A stretch of DNA of 64,000 nt. Origin: a virus (taxonomy: Duplodnaviria; Caudoviricetes). The position numbers and the translations under genes are program-made. Under the pieces are notes generated by a model. It was not told the origin of the DNA. It searched no databases and saw nothing but the letters and a program-made list of their open reading frames with translations. The number at the start of each line of letters is the position of its first letter. Position 1 is the first letter of the stretch. Shown here piece by piece: positions 22,065 to 58,621 of the stretch. The stretch lies in the IMG/VR virus record IMGVR_UViG_3300033073_001109, positions 18,197-82,196 of that record. One strand, 5' to 3'.

Positions 22065-22318
22065 GCGAGTATATCGTAGCAGAACTTTGGGGCGAACTCA
22101 AACGCTATGTAAACACAGTTGATCGCGCAGAAGCCGCAGAAACTGTAGTACAAATTTTGATGGATAATGATTCAGATGTTGAAGACATTCGTGACGCCTT
22201 TAAAGGCGACTCAGACATCAAACGTGCGCTAACTTCGTATCTTGACAACGACAACGATTATTCCGAAGAAGAGGAAGAAGAGGAAGAAGAGTACGAAGAC
22301 GATGACTGGGAAAACTAA
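22061..22318 (+). CDS. Small acidic hypothetical protein
   Basis: GGAG RBS, ATGA overlap, poly-Glu tail. Confidence 0.75.
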   Translation: MSEYIVAELWGELKRYVNTVDRAEAAETVVQILMDNDSDVEDIRDAFKGDSDIKRALTSYLDNDNDYSEEEEEEEEEYEDDDWEN

Positions 22319-23549
22319 AACCTTTCCGATAGAGAATTCATCAGCATGTGTATTCAAATGGGCGTGGAATACCTTTAGGTTGTACAACGCCCAATCATCT
22401 AGTTGTCACCGAGTGACACCAGTGGTTGTACCGTTGGACAAGTTTGACAATTTTCACAATACTCCTGAGATTTTAGTTGACCGGCAAAAGATGCTGGAAG
22501 GATCGTGGCCAGGACGTGGCTGCGAATATTGTCAAAGCATAGAGTCTCAGGGAGGTACCAGCGATAGGTTATACCACAATCAAATTCCTGGACTTACGCC
22601 CATTGATTTTGATGGTATAAAACCAGTTACTCCCCGAATCAGTGAAATCTATCTGCACAATACTTGCGATCTTGCCTGTGTATATTGCTTACCAATATTC
22701 AGTGAGAAGATCAATCAGGAAATAAAAAAGTTTGGCCCTTACCCAGTTGGTATTGCCGCGGTCCAAGAACACTCACAGCGAGAACAGTATTTCGACGCCT
22801 ATGTGAACTGGTTGAAAGACAATGGGTCCAAATTGTCACGACTGAGTATACTAGGTGGCGAGCCTTTGTTACAAAAGGAGTTTTGGACCTTGTTGGATTT
22901 GTTACCTGAAATTGCTAACAAAGATTTAGAACTAGCAATTAATACCAATCTAAATTGCAATTCTGCTATCATGGACAGATTCGTTGCTAAAAGTCGAGAA
23001 CTCACAGTGTCAAGATCTATCAAGCAAGTGTTTGTGTCGGCCAGTTTGGACTGTTGGGGGCCACAAGCAGAGTTTGTTCGATATGGGTTAAATCTCGGCA
23101 CCTGGCAGAAAAATTTTGAGCGTTTGGTAGAAAACCGCTGGATAGCAACGTCGGTGCATCAGGTGTTAACAGCATTGACTATAAAAACCTCACTGGAGCT
23201 ACAAAATAAAATTGCAGAATACAAAAAGTTCAATCCTAAGATATTGCAAGAATATTATTTTGTTGACAGTGGTTATGAAAAAGTATACCATCCAGAAATA
23301 TTTGGCAATGAGTTTTTCCATGACAAATTGCATGAATTACTGCGTCTGTTTCCAGTTACAACAGAGTGGGACCATGAATCTCGAAAACGGCTCGAAGGTA
23401 TTGTGAATTTCATAGATCAGTCCAGCGCAGATCTTCCGAGGCTACAGATGTTGAAACAGACTTTAGACACAATAGATCATAGAAGAAACACTGATTGGAA
23501 AAAGTTGTGGCCAGAGATCAATGACTATTTTGTTGAAAACAAGGTTTAA
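22302..23549 (+). CDS. Radical SAM protein (second copy)
   Basis: CDLACVYC; LGGEP; N-terminal CVFKW...SCH...CEYC; start set at ATG 22302. Confidence 0.85.
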   Translation: MTGKTKTFPIENSSACVFKWAWNTFRLYNAQSSSCHRVTPVVVPLDKFDNFHNTPEILVDRQKMLEGSWPGRGCEYCQSIESQGGTSDRLYHNQIPGLTPIDFDGIKPVTPRISEIYLHNTCDLACVYCLPIFSEKINQEIKKFGPYPVGIAAVQEHSQREQYFDAYVNWLKDNGSKLSRLSILGGEPLLQKEFWTLLDLLPEIANKDLELAINTNLNCNSAIMDRFVAKSRELTVSRSIKQVFVSASLDCWGPQAEFVRYGLNLGTWQKNFERLVENRWIATSVHQVLTALTIKTSLELQNKIAEYKKFNPKILQEYYFVDSGYEKVYHPEIFGNEFFHDKLHELLRLFPVTTEWDHESRKRLEGIVNFIDQSSADLPRLQMLKQTLDTIDHRRNTDWKKLWPEINDYFVENKV

Positions 23550-23551
23550 TT

Positions 23552-24004
23552 ATGTGGTATAGTAAAGTTACATCAGATCTAGGAAACATACCAGACTTTA
23601 TAGCCTATTACGATCGCGAACTAGAAGAAGCCAAGAAAGAATGTAGAATTGGCGGCATAGTAGAACGTAATATCAAAGAACTACCTGGGCACACAGAGCA
23701 CAGATTCAATCAATTACAAGAGATTGAGGCGGTGCTCAATTATCTCAACATTCAACTTCGTAAGATTCGTAGGAAACATTTCCAAAAGTACCTTGAAGCC
23801 TATGCTCGTGCCTTGACCTCTAGAGACGCAGAAAAATATGTAGACGGCGAAGACGAAGTTGTGGACTTTGAAACCATAATTAACGAAGTAGCTTTTTTGC
23901 GCAATCGTTGGCTAGGCGTGATGAAAGGTTTAGAAACCAAACAGTGGCAAATGGGTCACATAGTTCGTCTAAGAACTGCTGGCATGGAAGACATCCAGGT
24001 GTAA
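23552..24004 (+). CDS. uvsY: UvsY-like recombination mediator
   Basis: Helical; KYLEAY..ALTSRDAEKYVDGE..KGLETKQWQ; near uvsX. Confidence 0.7.
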   Translation: MWYSKVTSDLGNIPDFIAYYDRELEEAKKECRIGGIVERNIKELPGHTEHRFNQLQEIEAVLNYLNIQLRKIRRKHFQKYLEAYARALTSRDAEKYVDGEDEVVDFETIINEVAFLRNRWLGVMKGLETKQWQMGHIVRLRTAGMEDIQV

Positions 24005-24012
24005 ATACCTGC

Positions 24013-24768
24013 ATGAAAATTGTAGTTGTTACTGGCGGCTTTGACCCGCTACACTCGGGACACCTAGCCTACTTCAAAGCTGCCAAAAAACTTGGCGATA
24101 GACTCATTGTAGGGCTTAACTCAGATGAATGGCTGACCCGTAAAAAAGGTCGTCCTTTTATGCCTATGAGTGAACGCTTTGCATTGGTCAGTGCCATTGG
24201 GGTAGTTGACGAAGTTGTTGTTTACAACGACGATGATGGCTCTAGCTGTGATGCCATTCGTTTGGTTAAAAAGCGACATCCTGATGCACACATAATCTTT
24301 GCCAATGGCGGAGATAGAACCAAAGACAACATTCCCGAAATGGTGTTTGACGACGTTGAGTTTGTGTTTGGTGTGGGCGGCGAAGATAAGAAAAACAGTT
24401 CAAGTTGGATTTTAGAAGATTGGAAAAAACCCAAAACTCAACGCAATTGGGGATACTATCGTGTGCTACATGAAGTTGGTGCTCGCACCAAGCTCAAAGA
24501 ACTCACAGTAAATCCCAAAACATGCTTGAGCATGCAACGCCACGATCAGCGAGCAGAATTTTGGTTTGTTGCTGAAGGCGAGGCCTCTGTTTATACCTTA
24601 GATGCCTCTAGCGATCATGATTTAGTAGGAACATACAGTCAACACGAGTACATATGGATTGATCGTAACCAATGGCACATGCTTTGTAACGAAACAAGTG
24701 AACCTCTAAAGTTAATTGAAATACAGTACGGAGATGATTGTGTAGAAGAGGACATAGAACGTCGATGA
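24013..24768 (+). CDS. Cytidylyltransferase-family (RfaE/TagD-like) domain fused to a cupin domain
   Basis: TGGFDPLHSGH (HxGH), FANGGDR, GVGGEDKKNSSS; then RNWGYY, LSMQRH..RAEFW, WHML, IEIQYG; TAAATA at 24002. Confidence 0.85.
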   Translation: MKIVVVTGGFDPLHSGHLAYFKAAKKLGDRLIVGLNSDEWLTRKKGRPFMPMSERFALVSAIGVVDEVVVYNDDDGSSCDAIRLVKKRHPDAHIIFANGGDRTKDNIPEMVFDDVEFVFGVGGEDKKNSSSWILEDWKKPKTQRNWGYYRVLHEVGARTKLKELTVNPKTCLSMQRHDQRAEFWFVAEGEASVYTLDASSDHDLVGTYSQHEYIWIDRNQWHMLCNETSEPLKLIEIQYGDDCVEEDIERR

Positions 24769-34707: not shown

Positions 34708-35571
34708 ATGTTTAAATTCTTGCGAATAGTTCTTGGCCGTACAGGCGATCTACACATACGGTTCCGACTTAGAAATTCTGAAGTAACTGACCTGTGGTTA
34801 CAACGAATGTTGCAACGCACAGCCTGGCCCTTGGATCATCCAGATAGATTTTACGGATTTGGCACTCCAGTTGAAGAACGCAACCGTGCCGTGGTCATGA
34901 TTGAACAATGTATCAATACTATCAACGCACACGAGCCAATCATACATCGCAAGTTTGAATATACACAAGACTGTCTTAACTATTTGCACAATATATTTGA
35001 ACGATACCACGGATTGTTGGATCAACAAACATCACCTTATTGGAAGTCTGCACCAAACACAGTTCGCAAAGCTCTAGCCGAACTTAACTTGGCAGTACAC
35101 AGATGTGAAAGTGTGTCCAGTGGTAATCAACCGAGGTTTGTATGCACTTGGTACGGCATGCCCAAGACATATACGTTGGATCCTAAACTGCAATCTATAT
35201 ACGGAGACTGGCGTATCAAGTTTGGTACTGTATATCTTAACTATTGTGAAATAGGCAAAACTGTAGAAGACCTTACTCACGACAACGATAAGTACATTGG
35301 GGACGATGCGTTTCGTCCATTTAGCCATTACAGTGCCGATTTCAATGTTGCATTTTATGAACGAGACCTAACTGAAATCTATGGCAAAGTTCAAAACTAC
35401 ATTGATCAACATAGAGATTTTTTTCTTGCACACAACATACAAAGTGTGTATAATATCAAAGCACAACCTTTGAGACTGCCAGTTGCTGAACTTGAGTACA
35501 GCGGCAACAGGGAAGAGTTACTTTTTCAAATTGCACAACGTCAATGGGTGCATGAAGTTATATTAGAATGA
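34708..35571 (+). CDS. Hypothetical protein, paralogue of 20239-21006
   Basis: LNYLHNIFE, LAELNLAVHRCE, GTVYLNYCEIGK. Confidence 0.75.
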   Translation: MFKFLRIVLGRTGDLHIRFRLRNSEVTDLWLQRMLQRTAWPLDHPDRFYGFGTPVEERNRAVVMIEQCINTINAHEPIIHRKFEYTQDCLNYLHNIFERYHGLLDQQTSPYWKSAPNTVRKALAELNLAVHRCESVSSGNQPRFVCTWYGMPKTYTLDPKLQSIYGDWRIKFGTVYLNYCEIGKTVEDLTHDNDKYIGDDAFRPFSHYSADFNVAFYERDLTEIYGKVQNYIDQHRDFFLAHNIQSVYNIKAQPLRLPVAELEYSGNREELLFQIAQRQWVHEVILE

Positions 35572-37034
35572 AAACTGCCACAATAATTGTTCGAGACGAA
35601 GTTAACATCAAGATTGAAGGACTAGATCTTGACATGCGCCGCAGACTGGTTAGCCAGTTCAAGTATGATGTGCCTTATGCTAGATATCTACCAGCAGTAA
35701 GACTGGGCCGTTGGGATGGCAAGGTCAGTTACTTTCAATTGGGTGGCTCAACCTACACCAACTTGCTGCCTGAAATTTTGCCCACATTGGAGCAATGGGG
35801 CTGGGATGTTGAAGTAGATGATCAACGTAGCTACGGTGTAACATTTGATTTCATGCCCGTGGTTGAAGAACAATGGTCACACAAGGTGTGGCCCAAAGGA
35901 CACCCAGCCGAAGGTGAACCTATTATGTTGCGTGACTATCAAGTAGAAATTGTCAACAACTTTTTACAGAATCCTCAGTGCATACAAGAAGTGGCCACAG
36001 GTGCAGGCAAAACAATTATGACTGCCACACTCAGTGCCGCAGTAGAATCTTATGGTAGGTCAATTGTGATTGTGCCCAACAAGAGTTTGGTTACACAAAC
36101 AGAAAAAGACTATCGCAATGTTGGCTTAGATGTAGGTGTTTACTTTGGCGACCGTAAGGAAGTTGGCCACCAGCATACCATATGCACTTGGCAGAGTCTC
36201 AACGTGTTGTTAAAAAATACAAAATCTGGCACTGCCCAAACCACCATTGGTGAGTTTATTGAGGATGTTGTGTGTGTCATGGTAGACGAAGTACACATGG
36301 CCAAAGCAGACGCACTGAAAACCTTGCTTACAGGTGTTATGAGTCATATTCCTATTCGCTGGGGACTCACAGGCACCATACCCAAGGAAAAGTTTGAAAG
36401 CCAAGCTCTGTTGGTCAGTCTTGGCCCAGTGATTGGTAAACTCAGTGCCAATGAACTACAACAACAAGGCGTACTGGCTAACTGCCACGTCAACATTGTG
36501 CAATTGGTAGATCATGTAGAGTACAAAGACTATCAAAGCGAGCTCAAATATTTGTTGGAAGAATCGGGCAGACTAGATACTATTGCCAAGCTCGTTCAAC
36601 AAGTTAACGAAACCGGAAATACTTTGGTATTGGTTGATCGAGTAGCAGCCGGTCATGCATTGGTTGAACGGTTAGGCGAACGTGCTGTATTTGTGTCGGG
36701 TGCAACCAAAGCAAAGGATAGACAAAGTGAATACGACGAAGTGGCAGAAAGCTCAGACAAAATTATTGTGGCTACATATGGTGTGGCCGCGGTTGGTATT
36801 AACATTCCTCGTATTTTTAATTTGGTGTTGCTTGAACCTGGGAAGAGTTTTGTACGAGTTATCCAATCAATTGGTCGTGGTATCCGCAAGGCTGAGGACA
36901 AAGATCATGTACAAATCTGGGACGTTACATCAACGTGCAAGTTTGCAAAACGGCACCTTACAAAGAGAAAAGCCTACTACAAAGAAGCCAACTATCCGTT
37001 TACACAAGAACGATTAGATTGGATGATAATTTAA
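35568..37034 (+). CDS. uvsW: UvsW-like SF2 helicase
   Basis: ATGAGKT, DEVH, TGT, GINIP, QSIGRGIR. Confidence 0.92.
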   Translation: MKTATIIVRDEVNIKIEGLDLDMRRRLVSQFKYDVPYARYLPAVRLGRWDGKVSYFQLGGSTYTNLLPEILPTLEQWGWDVEVDDQRSYGVTFDFMPVVEEQWSHKVWPKGHPAEGEPIMLRDYQVEIVNNFLQNPQCIQEVATGAGKTIMTATLSAAVESYGRSIVIVPNKSLVTQTEKDYRNVGLDVGVYFGDRKEVGHQHTICTWQSLNVLLKNTKSGTAQTTIGEFIEDVVCVMVDEVHMAKADALKTLLTGVMSHIPIRWGLTGTIPKEKFESQALLVSLGPVIGKLSANELQQQGVLANCHVNIVQLVDHVEYKDYQSELKYLLEESGRLDTIAKLVQQVNETGNTLVLVDRVAAGHALVERLGERAVFVSGATKAKDRQSEYDEVAESSDKIIVATYGVAAVGINIPRIFNLVLLEPGKSFVRVIQSIGRGIRKAEDKDHVQIWDVTSTCKFAKRHLTKRKAYYKEANYPFTQERLDWMII

Positions 37035-37176: not shown

Positions 37177-37677
37177 ATGAAGATATTAACTCTTGACAAT
37201 GTACCTTACGACCTTGATCATTTGCCCGACGAAGTAGATGACATGCGGTTTGCAATTTTAGATAATTCTAATCCGTTAGATCCAGACTATCAATTTATTC
37301 CTTTGATCTTTCTTGAAAGTTTTACCAGCCCTGCATTGGTATTGCGAATCGGAAAAACCACTCTCAAAATGCCCATGGATTGGCAAATATTAATTGGTGA
37401 ACCAGACATTGGCGACCTTGAAATGCTACCGCTGACATCTATAAATGATCGTGGATTCAAAGTATTTCAATTTAATCCGCTTTCAAGTTTTAGGCCCAGT
37501 TTCCCCGACATTGAAATTTTAGACGTGTATCACGAAGTCAACTGGTACGCACCCAAACTAAAGAACGGGCAAATACTGGCAGTTCCAATAGATGACGAAG
37601 AACAGCCAGACTGTGTATACTTTGTAAAGGATATCAGTCGCAACTGCGAAATTGTAGACTACAACAAGGCGTGGTAA
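37177..37677 (+). CDS. Hypothetical protein
   Basis: MKILTLDN...; acidic, beta-rich. Confidence 0.75.
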   Translation: MKILTLDNVPYDLDHLPDEVDDMRFAILDNSNPLDPDYQFIPLIFLESFTSPALVLRIGKTTLKMPMDWQILIGEPDIGDLEMLPLTSINDRGFKVFQFNPLSSFRPSFPDIEILDVYHEVNWYAPKLKNGQILAVPIDDEEQPDCVYFVKDISRNCEIVDYNKAW

Positions 37678-38009
37678 TGTTAAAATATTCTAATCATGAC
37701 GTTGGTGGCGAAGTTGTCAAAGACAACGAAACATATTTTCTGAAAGACAATCGAACTCTGAAAAATCTTGTGCTGAGTTCTACCAAACTGTATCGAGGAC
37801 AATCTACTCGTGGGCATAGCCATGCAGGACAAGAAGAAGTTTATTTCTTTGTACAAGGCACAGGCATGATGCTTGTAGACGAAGAAAAGTTTCGTGTTAA
37901 CCCTGGTGATATTATTCTCGTCCCCGACGGTGCGTTTCACAGAGTAATCAACGACGGCGAAATGCATCTTGTGTTTAACTGTGTATTTGATGGAAAACGA
38001 AACCACTGA
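37677..38009 (+). CDS. Cupin-domain protein
   Basis: GHSHAGQEEVYFFVQGTG...GDIILVPDGAFHRVIN. Confidence 0.85.
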   Translation: MLKYSNHDVGGEVVKDNETYFLKDNRTLKNLVLSSTKLYRGQSTRGHSHAGQEEVYFFVQGTGMMLVDEEKFRVNPGDIILVPDGAFHRVINDGEMHLVFNCVFDGKRNH

Positions 38010-38253: not shown

Positions 38254-38689
38254 CAAACTAAACATTGCTAACGAGATGCGTATGTTTGACCGCAAGGTCA
38301 GATCATTCTATGACGACCTTACCCCTGAAGAAAAGAAAAAGTTTTCAAACTATCTTATGATTCGCTGGGGATCAGCAGTAGAAGGATCACGCGAACTTCA
38401 AGAGTTTTATGTGATTGCTACAAATGAAAGATTGAACAAACATTTCTTTGATGTTAACAAGCACCCTAAACTACAATGGCTCATGGCAACTAGTGTGAGT
38501 CCGGGAATGGGCACACCGCGACATCCGTGGATTGCTCCTAAGAAAAAAGAAGCCGGTGCCGGACCAAAGCGCAAGGCCTTACAAGCAATCTTTCCGACCT
38601 ACAAAGACGACGAAATTGATGTTATGATGGCGCTGTGGTCGCAAAAAGACATTGATGCTTATAACAAACGTTTAGGTCAGGAAAAATGA
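38246..38689 (+). CDS. gp62: Clamp-loader small subunit (gp62-like)
   Basis: FSNYLMIRW, N-x-N-K-HFF, KHPKLQW; resembles T4-like clamp-loader A subunits. Confidence 0.6.
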   Translation: MSDKLNIANEMRMFDRKVRSFYDDLTPEEKKKFSNYLMIRWGSAVEGSRELQEFYVIATNERLNKHFFDVNKHPKLQWLMATSVSPGMGTPRHPWIAPKKKEAGAGPKRKALQAIFPTYKDDEIDVMMALWSQKDIDAYNKRLGQEK

Positions 38690-39360
38690 CATACGTTTGC
38701 GAGTTCTGTCATAAAGAGTTTATGAAAGAAACGTCTATTGCGGTTCACATGTGTGAGCCCAAGCGTCGACGCATGCAACGGGACGAACCTGGTGTGCGAT
38801 TTGGTATGCAAGCGTATTTGAGATTTTATGAAGTACACCAAGGCAGTGCCAAGCTAAAAACATACGATGACTTTTGTGATTCTAGTTACTACAGAGCTTT
38901 TGTTAAATTTGGCAACTACTGCGTAAACACTCACGTAATTGCCCCACATAGATTTTTAGATTGGTTATTAAAACAAAACAAGAAAATTGATCGCTGGTGC
39001 AGTGACACACTATACACTGAATATCTACAAGAGCATCTGCTGGTAGAATCAGTGCAGGATGCTTTAGAGCGTAGCATTGAACAAAGTATTCGGTGGGAAG
39101 AACGCACAGGAAACCCTGCCCGAGATATGTTGCGTTACGGAAATCAAAATGCTCTATGTTATGATATCACCACAGGTCGCATCAGTCCGTGGGTGATTTA
39201 CAACTCTGAGGCAGGGCAGAAGTTTCTAAACGAAATATCTGCAGAACAAGTGCAAATGATTTGGCCTTACATCAACAGTGATCGTTGGCACAAGAAGTTT
39301 ACAGATTACCCGGCCGATCAAGCCTGGGTCAAAGATATATTAGAGAAAGCGGGATGGTAA
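38686..39360 (+). CDS. Zinc-finger-containing hypothetical protein
   Basis: YVCEFCHKEFMKETSIAVHMC (C-x2-C-x12-H-x-C). Confidence 0.7.
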   Translation: MTYVCEFCHKEFMKETSIAVHMCEPKRRRMQRDEPGVRFGMQAYLRFYEVHQGSAKLKTYDDFCDSSYYRAFVKFGNYCVNTHVIAPHRFLDWLLKQNKKIDRWCSDTLYTEYLQEHLLVESVQDALERSIEQSIRWEERTGNPARDMLRYGNQNALCYDITTGRISPWVIYNSEAGQKFLNEISAEQVQMIWPYINSDRWHKKFTDYPADQAWVKDILEKAGW

Positions 39361-39361
39361 T

Positions 39362-39721
39362 ATGCTAGGCGGAATTAGTGCAGGAAGATATCTTGAAGTA
39401 ACTGGCGGCGGGTCAACCCATGTTCCTAAGTCTTACAACAGCAATCAATACATGGCTGGAGACATGAGATACGATCTTGACAATCAATGTATCAAGGTAT
39501 TTGATGGTACTAACTGGCAAAGCATGATCAATACTCATGCCACGATAAATTTAAACTCTGAAGCACAACTACTGCTGGAGTGGGCTAAACAAAAACGAGA
39601 AGAAGAATTAATGATCAAATCATTGGCCCAAATACATCCCGCAGTGGCAGATGCTCTCGAAGCAGTAAAGAAAGCCCAAGAGCAAGTTCGTATTGTGGCG
39701 GCATTGGTAGATACAGCATGA
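39362..39721 (+). CDS. Hypothetical protein
   Basis: 119 aa, coupled in the operon. Confidence 0.7.
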   Translation: MLGGISAGRYLEVTGGGSTHVPKSYNSNQYMAGDMRYDLDNQCIKVFDGTNWQSMINTHATINLNSEAQLLLEWAKQKREEELMIKSLAQIHPAVADALEAVKKAQEQVRIVAALVDTA

Positions 39722-40296
39722 GTGCAGACATTGACATTGACATGCCCAACAGGGACGCATTGCTGAAACTGATTCGGCATGTGCCTGCACGATTGGAAGT
39801 CAACGGAAAAATACGTAAACATAATTCAGGTATCTACGTCACAGAGATACCCACCGATCCTGTGCATGATTGTGCGGCACTGGATTATGAGTCAGCCGAG
39901 AAACGTGGTTATTTCAAAATCGATTTGCTGAATATGAGTGTTTACAACTTGATTCAAAGCCCCGAACACTATGAACAAATGTTGAACACCACACCTCCAT
40001 GGTCGAGACTGTGGACTGACGGACCTTGGGCCTCTCAACTGGTACACGTAGGAAATTACACAGACTTACTCAAAATAATGAAGCCAGATTCGATACCTAG
40101 GATGGCCGCCTTTATTAGTATCATTCGGCCGGGCAAAGCACACTTACAGACACGCCCTTGGACAGAAGTATTTGCATCAGTGTGGGATGGAGACGAAAGC
40201 CGGGGATATACATTTAAGAAAAGCCACGCAGTTTCCTACGCGGCCCTGGTAGCATTGCACATGAATTTACTCAACACGCCTAACCAAAGTAATTGA
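39718..40296 (+). CDS. Miniature DnaE (Pol III alpha, family C)-like protein
   Basis: DIDID, KHNSGIYV, GYFKIDLL, AAFISIIRPG and GYTFKKSHAVSYA are colinear with DnaE DFDVD, HAGGVVI, GLVKFDFL, ALVALFRPG and GYGFNKSHSAAYA. Confidence 0.8.
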   Translation: MSADIDIDMPNRDALLKLIRHVPARLEVNGKIRKHNSGIYVTEIPTDPVHDCAALDYESAEKRGYFKIDLLNMSVYNLIQSPEHYEQMLNTTPPWSRLWTDGPWASQLVHVGNYTDLLKIMKPDSIPRMAAFISIIRPGKAHLQTRPWTEVFASVWDGDESRGYTFKKSHAVSYAALVALHMNLLNTPNQSN

Positions 40297-40644
40297 TTTG
40301 CGCTTGCTCTTACGGCGTGCAATATCAGTTAAACTACACACAGGCCCGTGTAGAATTTCAAGGTCTTTGTTTGAAAATGTGCGCAAGGTATATCTAAACT
40401 TTTCCCAATCTGTGCGTAAAAAGATATTAATGGGGATTGAACGATTTGATTCCCACCACCACTGACTGGCCAGTTCTAAAAACTCAACTTTTTCTTGTTG
40501 TGTAAGTACTGACCCAAAGTCGTAGATTGTAGTAACCGCATCGTCGCGATTTTGTACTACTCCAATATACTCTGCGTTTGCGTATACGCACAGTGTTATA
40601 AAGGGATATTTTTCAGCCAATTTTTCGAAGATATTGTTACCCAT
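40267..40644 (-). CDS. Hypothetical protein
   Basis: 125-aa ORF; WWWESNRSIPINIFL; convergent with mini-DnaE. Confidence 0.7.
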   Translation of the reverse strand: MGNNIFEKLAEKYPFITLCVYANAEYIGVVQNRDDAVTTIYDFGSVLTQQEKVEFLELASQWWWESNRSIPINIFLRTDWEKFRYTLRTFSNKDLEILHGPVCSLTDIARRKSKRKSITLVRRVE

Positions 40645-41774: not shown

Positions 41775-42746
41775 ATGCTTGACATCTTAAACTACCTGCC
41801 TGCAAAGCGTAAATCTACTCCTTCGGGCTGGATCAGTTTCAATGCACCCTGTTGCAATGATAAACGAGGCCGCGGCGGTATCAAGCTAACCGATCAAAGT
41901 TGGAGTTATCATTGTTTCAATTGTGGGCGCACAGGCAGTTTTGTCATGGGCCGTAGCGTAAGTTTTAAAGCTCGCAGTTTGCTCAAACTTTTAAATGTGC
42001 CCGACATAGAAATTGAACAACTGAATCTTGAAAGCCTGAGACATCGTAGCATACATGGTATCTTGGATGATCGAGCCAGAGTTGTCAACGAAGTCAGTGA
42101 TATTCACTTTGAAGAGTTTGATGACTTTCCTCCTGCCAGTGAAATTATCACTCCCGAGCTGCCACTGTATTGGAACTACATCCGAGATCGACGGGTGCCT
42201 GAAAACTTCCCAGCCATGACTACCATACGGACAGACGGCATTCATTGGGTAAGGCCGCATGTGGTAATTCCGTTTACCTACGATGACAAACTAGTAGGAT
42301 GGTGTGCTAGATTCTTAGATGGTAAAGCACCCAAGTACATCAATCATGCACAACCAGGTTATGTGTTTGGCACAGACCTGCAACATGACAATTGGCAGCA
42401 TGTGTTGGTCATGGAAGGCATCTTTGATGCTCTCAGCATCGGTGGCTTGGCAGTGATGCACAACACAGTGAGTGACCGACAGGCCCGACTGATACGCAAC
42501 CTTGGTCGTGAAATCACAGTGATTCCTGATCAAGATGAAGCAGGCATGGAACTTGTGGATCGTGCGCTGGAACTGGGATGGGCAGTGAGCATGCCTGACT
42601 GGGAACCAGGAGTAAAAGATGTCAATGATGCAGTAGTAAAGTATGGCCGCCTAACAACTTTGCTAACTATAATGCAAGCTCGGGAAACCAGTAGAATCAA
42701 AATTGAATTAAGGAAGAAACAACTTGTTAAAAGACTACGGAGTTGA
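41775..42746 (+). CDS. gp61: DNA primase (Zn ribbon plus TOPRIM)
   Basis: PCC...HCFNC; EGIFDA; DQDEAG; KDVND. Confidence 0.85.
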   Translation: MLDILNYLPAKRKSTPSGWISFNAPCCNDKRGRGGIKLTDQSWSYHCFNCGRTGSFVMGRSVSFKARSLLKLLNVPDIEIEQLNLESLRHRSIHGILDDRARVVNEVSDIHFEEFDDFPPASEIITPELPLYWNYIRDRRVPENFPAMTTIRTDGIHWVRPHVVIPFTYDDKLVGWCARFLDGKAPKYINHAQPGYVFGTDLQHDNWQHVLVMEGIFDALSIGGLAVMHNTVSDRQARLIRNLGREITVIPDQDEAGMELVDRALELGWAVSMPDWEPGVKDVNDAVVKYGRLTTLLTIMQARETSRIKIELRKKQLVKRLRS

Positions 42747-44172
42747 TGTTCAACGACTATTTTTGGAAATGATGTTGGAGGATGCACAGAGCTATGTGCG
42801 TGTTCAGAACATTTATAATCCTGCAAACTTTGACAAGAGTTTGAGACCTGTGGCTGAGTTCATCAAAGAACACAGCGCCAAATTCAATACATTGCCAGAC
42901 CGCACACAGATTGCCGCAGCCACTGGTGTCAAACTTCAAACTGTGCCCGACTTGAATGAAGGGCACTACAATTGGTTCATGGAAGAGTTTGAAGCGTTTA
43001 CTAAACGTCAAGAACTAGAGAGAGCTATTCTCAAGTCAGCAGATTTGCTGGAAAAAGGTGAGTTTGAGCCTGTGGAGAAACTGATCAAGGATGCGGTACA
43101 AATATCGTTGACCAAAGATCTTGGCACAGACTTTTGGCTAGATCCCGAAGGCATGTTTGCCAAATATTTTGATGCTGGCGGTCAAGTATCAACAGGGTGG
43201 CCACAGTTGGACAAATTGCTGTATGGCGGTTTTAGTCGCGGAGAACTCAATATCTTTGCTGGCGGGTCAGGCTCAGGAAAATCCTTGGTAATGATGAACA
43301 TTGCGTTGAACTGGGTGCAACAAGGACTCAACGGTGTATACATTACACTAGAACTTTCAGAAGAGCTAACGGGTTTGCGTACAGCAGCCATGCTGGCTAA
43401 TATGTCAACCAAAGATATTCGCCGTGACAAAGAAACTGCGGCGCTCAAAGTCAAGATGGTGGGCAAAAAAGCCGGTAGTTATCAAGTTAAAGCCTTGCCA
43501 GCACAGAGCAACATCAACGATATTCGCGCTTTTTTAAAAGAGTATCAGATCAAAACAGGCAAGCGTGTGGACTTTATGATGATTGACTATTTGGATTTGC
43601 TGATGCCCGTGAGTGCCAAAGTCAGTCCCAATGACTTGTTTGTCAAAGACAAGTATGTTTCAGAAGAACTCCGAAATTTAGCCAAAGAACTTGGCATACT
43701 AATGGTAACTGCATCGCAGTTAAACAGATCCGCTGTGGAAGAAGTTGAATTTGATCACTCACACATCTCAGGTGGTATTTCAAAGATCAACACAGCAGAT
43801 AATGTGTTTGGTATTTTTACAAGCCGTGCTATGAAAGAGCGTGGCAAGTATCAAATACAGTGTATGAAGAGTCGCTCATCAACGGGCGTTGGACAAAAAA
43901 TTGATCTGGAGTATAACATTGAAACCATGCGCATTACTGATCCCGGAATTGAAGACACGGACTCATTCCGTGGCGGCCCCAAACCATCAATCATGGATGC
44001 AATCAAAGCCAAGGCAACAGTCAGCACTGCTAACTCCGACGAGGATAATGCACCGCCAAAATTTGAACGTGCAACAGGAACCCCTGCATGGGAGCAGGGG
44101 CCTAAAGTAACAGCAGATGTGCAGAGCAACAAACTCAAACAACTGCTAGGACAGATCAAATCAGGAAGTTAA
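42724..44172 (+). CDS. gp41: Replicative DnaB/gp41-like helicase
   Basis: GGSGSGKS, ITLEL, IDYLDL, TASQLNR, KSRSS. Confidence 0.92.
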   Translation: MLKDYGVDVQRLFLEMMLEDAQSYVRVQNIYNPANFDKSLRPVAEFIKEHSAKFNTLPDRTQIAAATGVKLQTVPDLNEGHYNWFMEEFEAFTKRQELERAILKSADLLEKGEFEPVEKLIKDAVQISLTKDLGTDFWLDPEGMFAKYFDAGGQVSTGWPQLDKLLYGGFSRGELNIFAGGSGSGKSLVMMNIALNWVQQGLNGVYITLELSEELTGLRTAAMLANMSTKDIRRDKETAALKVKMVGKKAGSYQVKALPAQSNINDIRAFLKEYQIKTGKRVDFMMIDYLDLLMPVSAKVSPNDLFVKDKYVSEELRNLAKELGILMVTASQLNRSAVEEVEFDHSHISGGISKINTADNVFGIFTSRAMKERGKYQIQCMKSRSSTGVGQKIDLEYNIETMRITDPGIEDTDSFRGGPKPSIMDAIKAKATVSTANSDEDNAPPKFERATGTPAWEQGPKVTADVQSNKLKQLLGQIKSGS

Positions 44173-57412: not shown

Positions 57413-58621
57413 ATGAAAAAACGTAATTATACATCAGAAACAGTTCGTCGCCTCCAAGGTTCGGTTCAAGTTGAACATACATTGGCCAAACTAGGCGCCG
57501 CAAATCTAAGAATGCTTTTGGCCAATGAACCCTACATCAATACACTAGGTGCCTATAACGGTCAGATGGCTGTACAACATGCCAAGGCCGGACTCAAGGC
57601 AATCTATTTGAGTGGGTGGCAAGTGGCTGCTGCCAACAACACAGCATTACAAACATATCCGGATCAAAGTCTTTATCCTGTGAACTCTGTTCCACAGGTC
57701 GTGCGCGGGATCAACAATGCTTTCCGTCGCGCTGATCAAATTGAACATGCTGAGGGCAAAGTAACCACAGATTACTTCCTGCCAATTGTTGCTGATGCGG
57801 AAGCAGGCTTCGGCGGTGCGTTAAACGCATATGAACTCATGATGGCTATGATCGAAGCAGGAGCTGCTGGTGTACATTTTGAAGATCAATTGTCGAGCGA
57901 AAAGAAATGTGGTCATTTAGGTGGTAAGGTTCTTATCCCTACTAGCCAGGCTATTCGCAATCTACAGGCCGCTCGTCTAGCCGCCGACGTAGCAGGTGTT
58001 GATACAGTTATCATGGCTCGTACTGACGCCGAGTCCGCCACGCTAATCACCTCAGACCATGATCCATTAGACCGGGATTTTATTATCAATGAACGCACTG
58101 AAGAAGGTTTTTACAAATTTAAAAATGGCCTTGATGCATGTATTAGCCGAGGTCTTGCTTATGCCCCTTACGCTGATCTCCTTTGGTTCGAAACTTCAAC
58201 GCCAGACATTGCACAAGCTAGAAAGTTTGCAGACGCCATCCATGCTCATTACCCTGATCAAATGCTGGCCTATAATTGCAGTCCTAGTTTTAATTGGCGT
58301 AAGTTTTTGAGCGAGGACGAATGCGAAACATTCCAGCGTGAACTGGGTGAACTGGGTTATAAATTTCAGTTTATTACACTAGCGGGTTTCCACTCAGTTA
58401 ACCTAGCAACCTTTGAGTTGGCCGAAGCATACCGTCAACGTGGCATGGCTGGATATTCAGAAATGCAACAACGTGAGTTTGAGGCGCAAGAACGTGGCTT
58501 TACCACAGTTCGTCATCAGCGTGAAGTAGGTGTTGGTTACTTTGATTTGATCTCAGAGGCGGTGGGTGCTACATCAACTGTGGCAAATAAAACATCTACT
58601 GAAGCGGACCAGTTTCATTGA
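57413..58621 (+). CDS. aceA: Isocitrate lyase
   Basis: [59 protein letters not shown]. Confidence 0.95.

Follow-up and report, generated by a model that had tools for sequence, protein, structure and literature searches.

By comparative genomics, Iyer, Anantharaman, Krishnan, Burroughs, and Aravind (Iyer et al. 2021; Viruses 13:63; PMC7824862) described a DNA polymerase III alpha divided between two genes in jumbo phages of group 2.2, whose genomes encode a family B polymerase as well (section 3.4.1 of that paper). The traits of this group, of T4-like phages of the Rak2/PA5oct/Atu_ph07 type, are the family B polymerase, a gp32-type SSB, an SF2 helicase of the UvsW/A18 type, and DnaB. Another phage-encoded family C core is the full-length DnaE (phrog_405) of jumbo phages of group 3.2, the Bacillus phage G type; according to Iyer et al. 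(2021, PMC7824862), this DnaE is a host-like, single-chain enzyme that contains PHP and functions as primary replicase. A literature search found no experimental study of any member of the split mini-DnaE kind, and the PA5oct omics paper makes no mention of DNA polymerases.

Here, we analysed a window of 64,000 nucleotides (the whole stretch of DNA under study) from an uncultured giant phage of the T4-like kind, in which an ORF of 192 aa at 39718–40296 (+) very probably encodes the C-terminal half (C half) of the "minimal DNA polymerase III alpha" that group 2.2 jumbo phages encode in two genes. Our results match the published description of the split (Iyer et al. 2021, PMC7824862) point by point, and the gene is a divergent member of an already published kind. 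In contrast to the DnaE of group 3.2, the enzyme is stripped, split, and found beside a family B polymerase. From the group 2.2 traits, a gp32-like SSB, an SF2 helicase (typed to the level of the superfamily), and DnaB are present in the window, whereas the family B polymerase was found only in the related contig G002 and in phage Paride, and was not seen on this fragment.

Sequence Features and Conservation of the 192-aa Protein

The ORF is intact, and its start ATG overlaps the TGA of an upstream ORF of 119 aa (ATGA, 39718–39721), as had been reported in an initial annotation made from the sequence alone. The five DnaE motifs pointed out there were found in the DnaE order, as DIDID (residues 4–8), HNSG (35–38), KIDLL (67–71), IRPG (136–139), and FKKSHA (166–171), and comparison with DnaE of E. 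coli K-12 confirmed that DIDID and KID correspond to D401, D403, and D555. In detail, the DIDID strand (39727–39741, +) matches PDFDVDF of E. coli, with D4 and D6 as the metal-binding aspartates (D401 and D403) and D8 as the equivalent of D405, and HNSG (39820–39831, +) matches KHAGG (about 510–514). The KIDLL strand (39916–39930, +), assigned by profile alignment, includes the third catalytic aspartate, D69 (E. coli K553/D555, in VKFDFLG). Finally, IRPG (40123–40134, +) is the counterpart of FRPG (638–641) in the middle-finger region, and FKKSHA (40213–40230, +) that of FNKSHS (756–761; FNKSH at 756–760). A profile built from 84 members of the family aligned to E. coli DnaE at positions 539–641 (conditional E 9.5e-7) and 739–769 (2.2e-5).

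Assignment of 39718–40296 (+) as the C-terminal half (Mg2+-/template-binding) of a split minimal Pol III alpha is based on phrog_11778, AF2, and VIA. The match to phrog_11778, annotated in PHROGs as "DNA polymerase", had an E value of 2.6e-50 and aligned residues 3–187 of 192 with profile positions 7–193 of 197, and a weak local match was also obtained to phrog_405 (positions 776–809). A Pfam search with the 192-aa ORF gave no match at E values up to 10, and PF07733 had no match anywhere on the contig. Likewise, no match was returned by a PDB sequence search with the protein or by a megablast search of 10 kb of the window against phages.

In tblastn searches, the C half was found in 96 phage records with 33–42% identity, 95 of them covering at least 80% of the protein. 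All these records correspond to jumbo phages: PA5oct/Paride, the PBECO4/121Q/RaK2 type, Atu_ph07, Phosso, XacN1, and SCTP-2. In comparison with C halves of cultured group 2.2 phages, such as Paride_0017 and the Phosso protein annotated as "DnaE-like DNA polymerase III alpha", the protein has the same length, profile match, aspartate triad, and fold, but its identity to them stays within the range given above, and it comes from an uncultured phage, on an 82-kb fragment without the partner gene. In metagenomes, the homologues fell into at least 7,916 clusters when grouped at 90% identity and into 368 when grouped at 50%, numbers that, with the phrog_11778 match, exclude a chance resemblance. Whole homologues measured 183–219 aa and started 1–10 residues ahead of DIDID; those below this length look like fragments from contig ends.

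Residues D4, D6, K67, D69, and P138 were invariant among 84 representatives with 28–83% identity, and D8, H35, G38, I136, R137, K140, K167, and H170, as well as the conserved positions of the FKKSHAxAYA and RPG motifs, were conserved in at least 90% of them. Moreover, aspartate occupied positions 4, 6, 8, and 69 in all of the 42 close relatives from IMG/VR. For these 42 relatives, the median dN/dS was 0.092 and the maximum 0.175 (323 pairs, counting those with dS between 0.05 and 1.5). The 192-aa protein is therefore not a decayed fragment, given its conserved length, its invariant triad, and a dN/dS of about 0.09, but a conserved protein on which purifying selection is strong and which keeps its catalytic residues. 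The initial annotation had reached the same view and had proposed homologue lengths and dN/dS as the check, with the outcome just described.

Predicted Fold and Missing DnaE Parts

The AlphaFold2 model of the protein had a mean pLDDT of 95.4, and its superposition, also proposed beforehand, retrieved family C polymerases only, with Z of 8–10. The best 18 matches in Foldseek and the best 15 in VIA were all to this family, the latter including PolC 3f2b (Z 9.8; rmsd 3.5 Å over 188 residues), Taq 3e0d (Z 9.6; 3.9 Å, 188 residues), Mycobacterium tuberculosis DnaE1 5lew (Z 9.5; 4.3 Å, 188 residues), and E. coli Pol III alpha 2hnh (Z 8.1; 4.3 Å, 187 residues), where the range covered was 399–784. 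After them, the first unrelated chain in VIA reached only Z 3.2. The predicted fold of the C half can thus be assigned with confidence to the family C palm part plus the middle finger.

What the protein shares with DnaE and PolC (2hnh, 3e0d, 5lew, 3f2b) is the Pol-beta-like palm, the equivalents of D401, D403, and D555, and the RPG and FxKSHAxAYA motifs. In contrast, it has 192 aa instead of about 1,160, it obtains no score with PF07733, and two genes share the coding of the palm, of which the C half, with its three catalytic aspartates, holds only half. The PHP, thumb, index-, ring-, and little-finger, clamp-binding, OB, and tau-binding parts are missing, and this range of the fold, together with the spacings between motifs, bears out the earlier statement that PHP, most of the thumb and fingers, clamp-binding, and OB domains are absent. 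The distance from DxD to HxxG is 25 residues, compared with 104 in E. coli DnaE, from which the absence of the thumb segment follows, and the stretch from RPG to FxKSH is reduced from about 100 residues in DnaE to about 25. In E. coli DnaE, the former stretch is reported to be the thumb and the latter the index finger (Lamers et al. 2006). Altogether, about 195 residues are excised from the C half within the span that corresponds to DnaE 399–784.

The N-Terminal Half Is Encoded by a Separate Gene in Related Phages

In transferases of the Pol-beta fold, a G[GS] nucleotide-binding motif precedes the DxD strand. The C half lacks it, because the protein begins three residues before the first catalytic aspartate. 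When the complete genomes of Paride and Phosso were searched with the full-length DnaE profile phrog_405, two small ORFs were matched in each of them and nothing more: the C half, at profile positions 579–809, and a protein of 169–177 aa, at positions 362–436. No match to positions 1–361 or 810–1190, which include the PHP and the C-terminal parts, was detected in either genome.

This second protein (N half, about 170 aa) ends in ...WGVGRGSSVASYVL...EFL[KNR] and matches phrog_11127 and positions 21–95 of Pfam PF07733 above the cut-off, with scores in the relatives of 26–46 bits against a cut-off of 23.9. By profile alignment, it corresponds to E. coli DnaE 323–393, including the GRGS motif (G361-R-G-S364), which is invariant in the N half. 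Its model matched DnaE 279–403 with Z of 5.3–5.8, although with a pLDDT of 69.5 when modelled alone and values below 50 for the GS loop and the C-terminus. As the aligned region ends shortly before the start of the C half, the break between both proteins is located in the loop at E. coli 394–398, just ahead of the DxD strand.

The two halves occur together: the N half was found in 92 phage records, compared with 96 for the C half, with almost identical counts per genus. The genes consistently lie at a distance from each other: 31 kb (PBECO4), 44 kb (Paride/PA5oct), 182 kb (Atu_ph07), and 224 kb (Phosso). In three long contigs that carry a C half about 80% identical to that of the window, the N half lies 96–99 kb downstream on the same strand. 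In these three close relatives, a conserved ORF of about 200 aa overlaps the N-half gene directly upstream of it (L093:894–1499, L094:744–1352, and L095:792–1394, all +).

On the fragment from which the window derives, an IMG/VR record of 82,196 bp and 24% completeness, the C half occupies positions 57,914–58,492, and the end of the contig is 23.7 kb downstream. No N half was detected on this contig with the Paride protein, with phrog_11127, or with the codon pattern of GRGSS, as is expected for a gene whose position would be about 75 kb past the contig end; this result is not evidence of its absence, and the N half is presumably encoded by this particular phage too, by extrapolation from its relatives. 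Two further long relatives also lack the N half, in both cases because the C half points toward the near end of the contig and off it. The initial annotation had seen no adjacent ORF resembling the missing domains, which holds for the neighbours of the C half only; in the relatives, the N half is a separate, distant gene. The search for complementary DnaE pieces that it had proposed thus gave none on the contig and, in the relatives, a split polymerase.

Do the Two Halves Associate?

One sequence, P0180, combines the N and the C half in a protein of 375 aa, with a short linker between them (..KEFIKDNKEGIYNIADFDID..), and was the only unsplit form found. Its N part is 35% identical to the N half (E 4e-19). 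P0180 counts as one observation only, as it is a single sequence on one contig of 2.4 kb (2,415 bp, ENA), and no relatives of it were found in IMG/VR. A search among longer proteins for other fused forms returned only an unrelated match of 397 aa that covered 14% of the query, and a scan of metagenomes returned only two long DnaE genes of the ordinary kind (933 aa and at least 1,093 aa). The 933-aa DnaE (L097:5581–8382, +, from a metagenome) starts about 150 residues ahead of the GS motif; it appears to lack PHP and could represent an intermediate degree of reduction.

The complex of the window C half with the N half of the relative G002 was also modelled, and it scored 0.90 in three runs (best of three controls, 0.00), a pass that may reflect only memorisation by the model or likeness, because both halves are contiguous in the solved structures of Pol III alpha. 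Among 80 solved complexes, 58 attained this mark, as did 2 of 110 mismatched pairs, counts that apply only approximately to this pair, as our own alignments were used. The runs agreed in at least 98% of contacts, the pLDDT of the partner was at least 86, and the modelled interface placed residues 3–10 of the C half (the DxD strand) against residues 133–146 of the N half (the GRGS strand). With the partner taken from a related genome, the modelled complex supports a putative binding of the C half to the N half, and we consider the formation of a heterodimer likely.

Genomic Context

The C half belongs to a replication module that is kept from this phage to Paride and Phosso, in agreement with its earlier placement near primase and helicase genes. 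The module starts with an SF2 DNA helicase of 488 aa (ResIII/DEAD plus Helicase_C; 35568–37034, +), followed by a phrog_11279 gene, a protein of 147 aa, a C2H2-type protein of 224 aa (phrog_11058, function unknown; 38686–39360, +), and the C half, and continues with a convergent gene of 125 aa (phrog_11637; 40267–40644, −), a virion-like protein, a DnaG-type primase (41775–42746, +; phrog_47, E 6.6e-37), and a DnaB-like replicative helicase (42724–44172, +; phrog_19, E 8.3e-67). The primase and DnaB genes are syntenic in all relatives, and the local gene order of the window is found also in contigs G002 and G003, the two compared among the three that have the N half 96–99 kb downstream. The convergent gene overlaps the 3' end of the C half by 30 nt, the same arrangement as in Paride and Phosso. 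The helicase...primase-DnaB module is thus common to the window and the group 2.2 C halves, with the partner gene far away in close relatives.

Upstream, the ORF of 119 aa coupled to the C half through ATGA (39362–39721, +) shows weak conservation, at 35–41% identity, in close relatives and had no family match. The gene for the 224-aa protein precedes the C half in contigs G001 to G003, directly or with one small ORF between, and directly in Paride, and in Phosso it lies about 1.1 kb upstream with three small genes between. The protein has an N-terminal C2H2-like CxxC...HxxxC motif, and its atlas clusters, all viral, are named C2H2-type. A role as an additional partner or as a regulator is conceivable.

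The initial annotation also placed the gene next to a clamp-loader subunit, which our analysis did not reproduce: none of the ten ORFs closest to the C half matched a clamp-loader family. A single AAA+ ORF was present on the contig (32875–33966, +; PF00004, 24.7 bits; phrog_1250), about 5.8 kb upstream of the C half. Its domain match does not go beyond generic AAA, and it is possibly the RFC-like clamp-loader ATPase that was meant. In addition, a cupin-domain ORF (37671–38009, +; PF07883, E 5e-14) is found inside the replication module. This ORF seems to be a variable insert, because it was present in G001 and was not found in the loci of G002, G003, Paride, and Phosso. No defence or counter-defence genes were seen near the C half.

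The window also encodes a tail sheath, a tube protein, TerL, the gp32-like SSB, a UvsX-like recombinase, and RNR. Farther upstream, an ORF of 435 aa (22242–23549, +) shows a weak radical-SAM match (24.5 bits, under the cut-off), and an ORF of 286 aa (23908–24768, +) matches a heptose-phosphate kinase/adenylyltransferase PHROG; these two may form a nucleotide-sugar or modification module. In Paride (OR805295.1), the family B polymerase matches at 88.9–92.7 kb are spread over two separate open frames, one of 825 aa and the other of 379 aa; the main replicase there may thus likewise be split or interrupted.

Discussion

Taken as a whole, the data are best explained, and we hold this with good confidence, by a split minimal Pol III alpha of which the 192-aa protein is the C half. 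This protein covers the part of the family C core between the DxD strand and the FxKSHAxAYA helix (DnaE 399–784), with the thumb and the index finger excised, and in relatives the separate gene of about 170 aa supplies the preceding palm subdomain (E. coli about 279–393) with the GRGS triphosphate-binding motif. On assembly, the two proteins would complete a single Pol-beta-like palm sheet; the N half would then take up the incoming nucleotide, D4, D6, and D69 of the C half would hold two Mg2+ ions for nucleotidyl transfer, and the retained middle finger would touch template and dNTP. The pair would act as a distributive accessory DNA polymerase, in short-patch, repair, or primer-proximal synthesis, together with the primase/helicase module, and not as the main replicase. 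Such an accessory and distributive role is to be expected, since these phages have a family B polymerase and the pair has no thumb, clamp-binding, exonuclease, OB, or PHP parts. Templated DNA synthesis is the putative activity of the pair towards which we lean, if only slightly; ordinary processive synthesis is doubtful for an enzyme with no thumb, only a small remainder of the fingers, and nothing to bind the clamp.

Whether the pair copies a template at all is where the main competing explanation departs. The two halves could form one enzyme that is a thumb-less nucleotidyltransferase of the Pol-beta fold and no templated DNA polymerase, devoted instead to the template-independent tailing of ends or primers, to the modification of nucleotides or DNA, or to the making of a nucleotide signal or a decoy used in the conflict between phage and host. 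Many non-polymerase transferases are known among the enzymes of the Pol-beta fold, and the removal of the thumb (25 vs. 104 residues), the loss of about 100 finger residues, the failure to find PHP, clamp-binding, and OB parts in two complete genomes, and the family B polymerase already in place would all fit such an enzyme. However, the finger motifs of family C, RPG and FKKSHAxAYA, which in Pol III alpha contact template and dNTP, are conserved at 90% or more, the gene resides in a conserved helicase/primase/DnaB module, and the surrounding genes showed no connection with defence or counter-defence, so we regard this explanation as unlikely. We also give a low probability to a related proposal, in which the pair, lacking a thumb and independent of a clamp, would be a family C nucleotidyltransferase with a new activity, for example template-independent or primer-proximal synthesis coupled to the phage primase and helicase.

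Two other explanations concern the 192-aa protein by itself. The initial annotation saw in it a complete minimal palm enzyme, self-sufficient without other pieces of DnaE, and its intact, length-conserved ORF, the three retained aspartates, and the confident fold of the protein alone are in line with that proposal. Nevertheless, the protein starts too close to the first aspartate to include a G[GS] motif, and the missing piece, the GRGS-bearing palm subdomain, is a separate, co-occurring gene in every relative examined and is joined to the C half in P0180. The proposal is not supported, as some of the DnaE core that the protein lacks is the product of another gene, which is the split-polymerase outcome that the annotation itself had named as refuting it, and we consider it very unlikely. 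Even less credible is a catalytically dead remnant or decoy, that is, a structural or replisome-mimicking protein. The disappearance of most DnaE domains would suit a remnant of this kind, but the aspartate triad is invariant down to 28% identity with a dN/dS of about 0.09, and the GRGS of the partner is likewise invariant; the same invariance of catalytic residues conflicts with the decoy for host defences that had been suggested earlier.

The gene is ordinary for its phage group: a PHROG is dedicated to it, its metagenomic relatives number in the thousands, and it has been described in print, and the contribution of the window is one more divergent member and nothing beyond that. The split polymerase itself is a family C core brought down to about 360 residues and distributed over two distant genes, and its phages possess a family B replicase besides. 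If the non-conventional alternative were true, no smaller family C core would be known to work, and the pair would provide a natural test of the DnaE parts required for catalysis. If the pair is active, it would define the minimal requirements of the fold of bacterial replicative polymerases and may reveal a second, specialised polymerase at the replication forks of T4-like jumbo phages.
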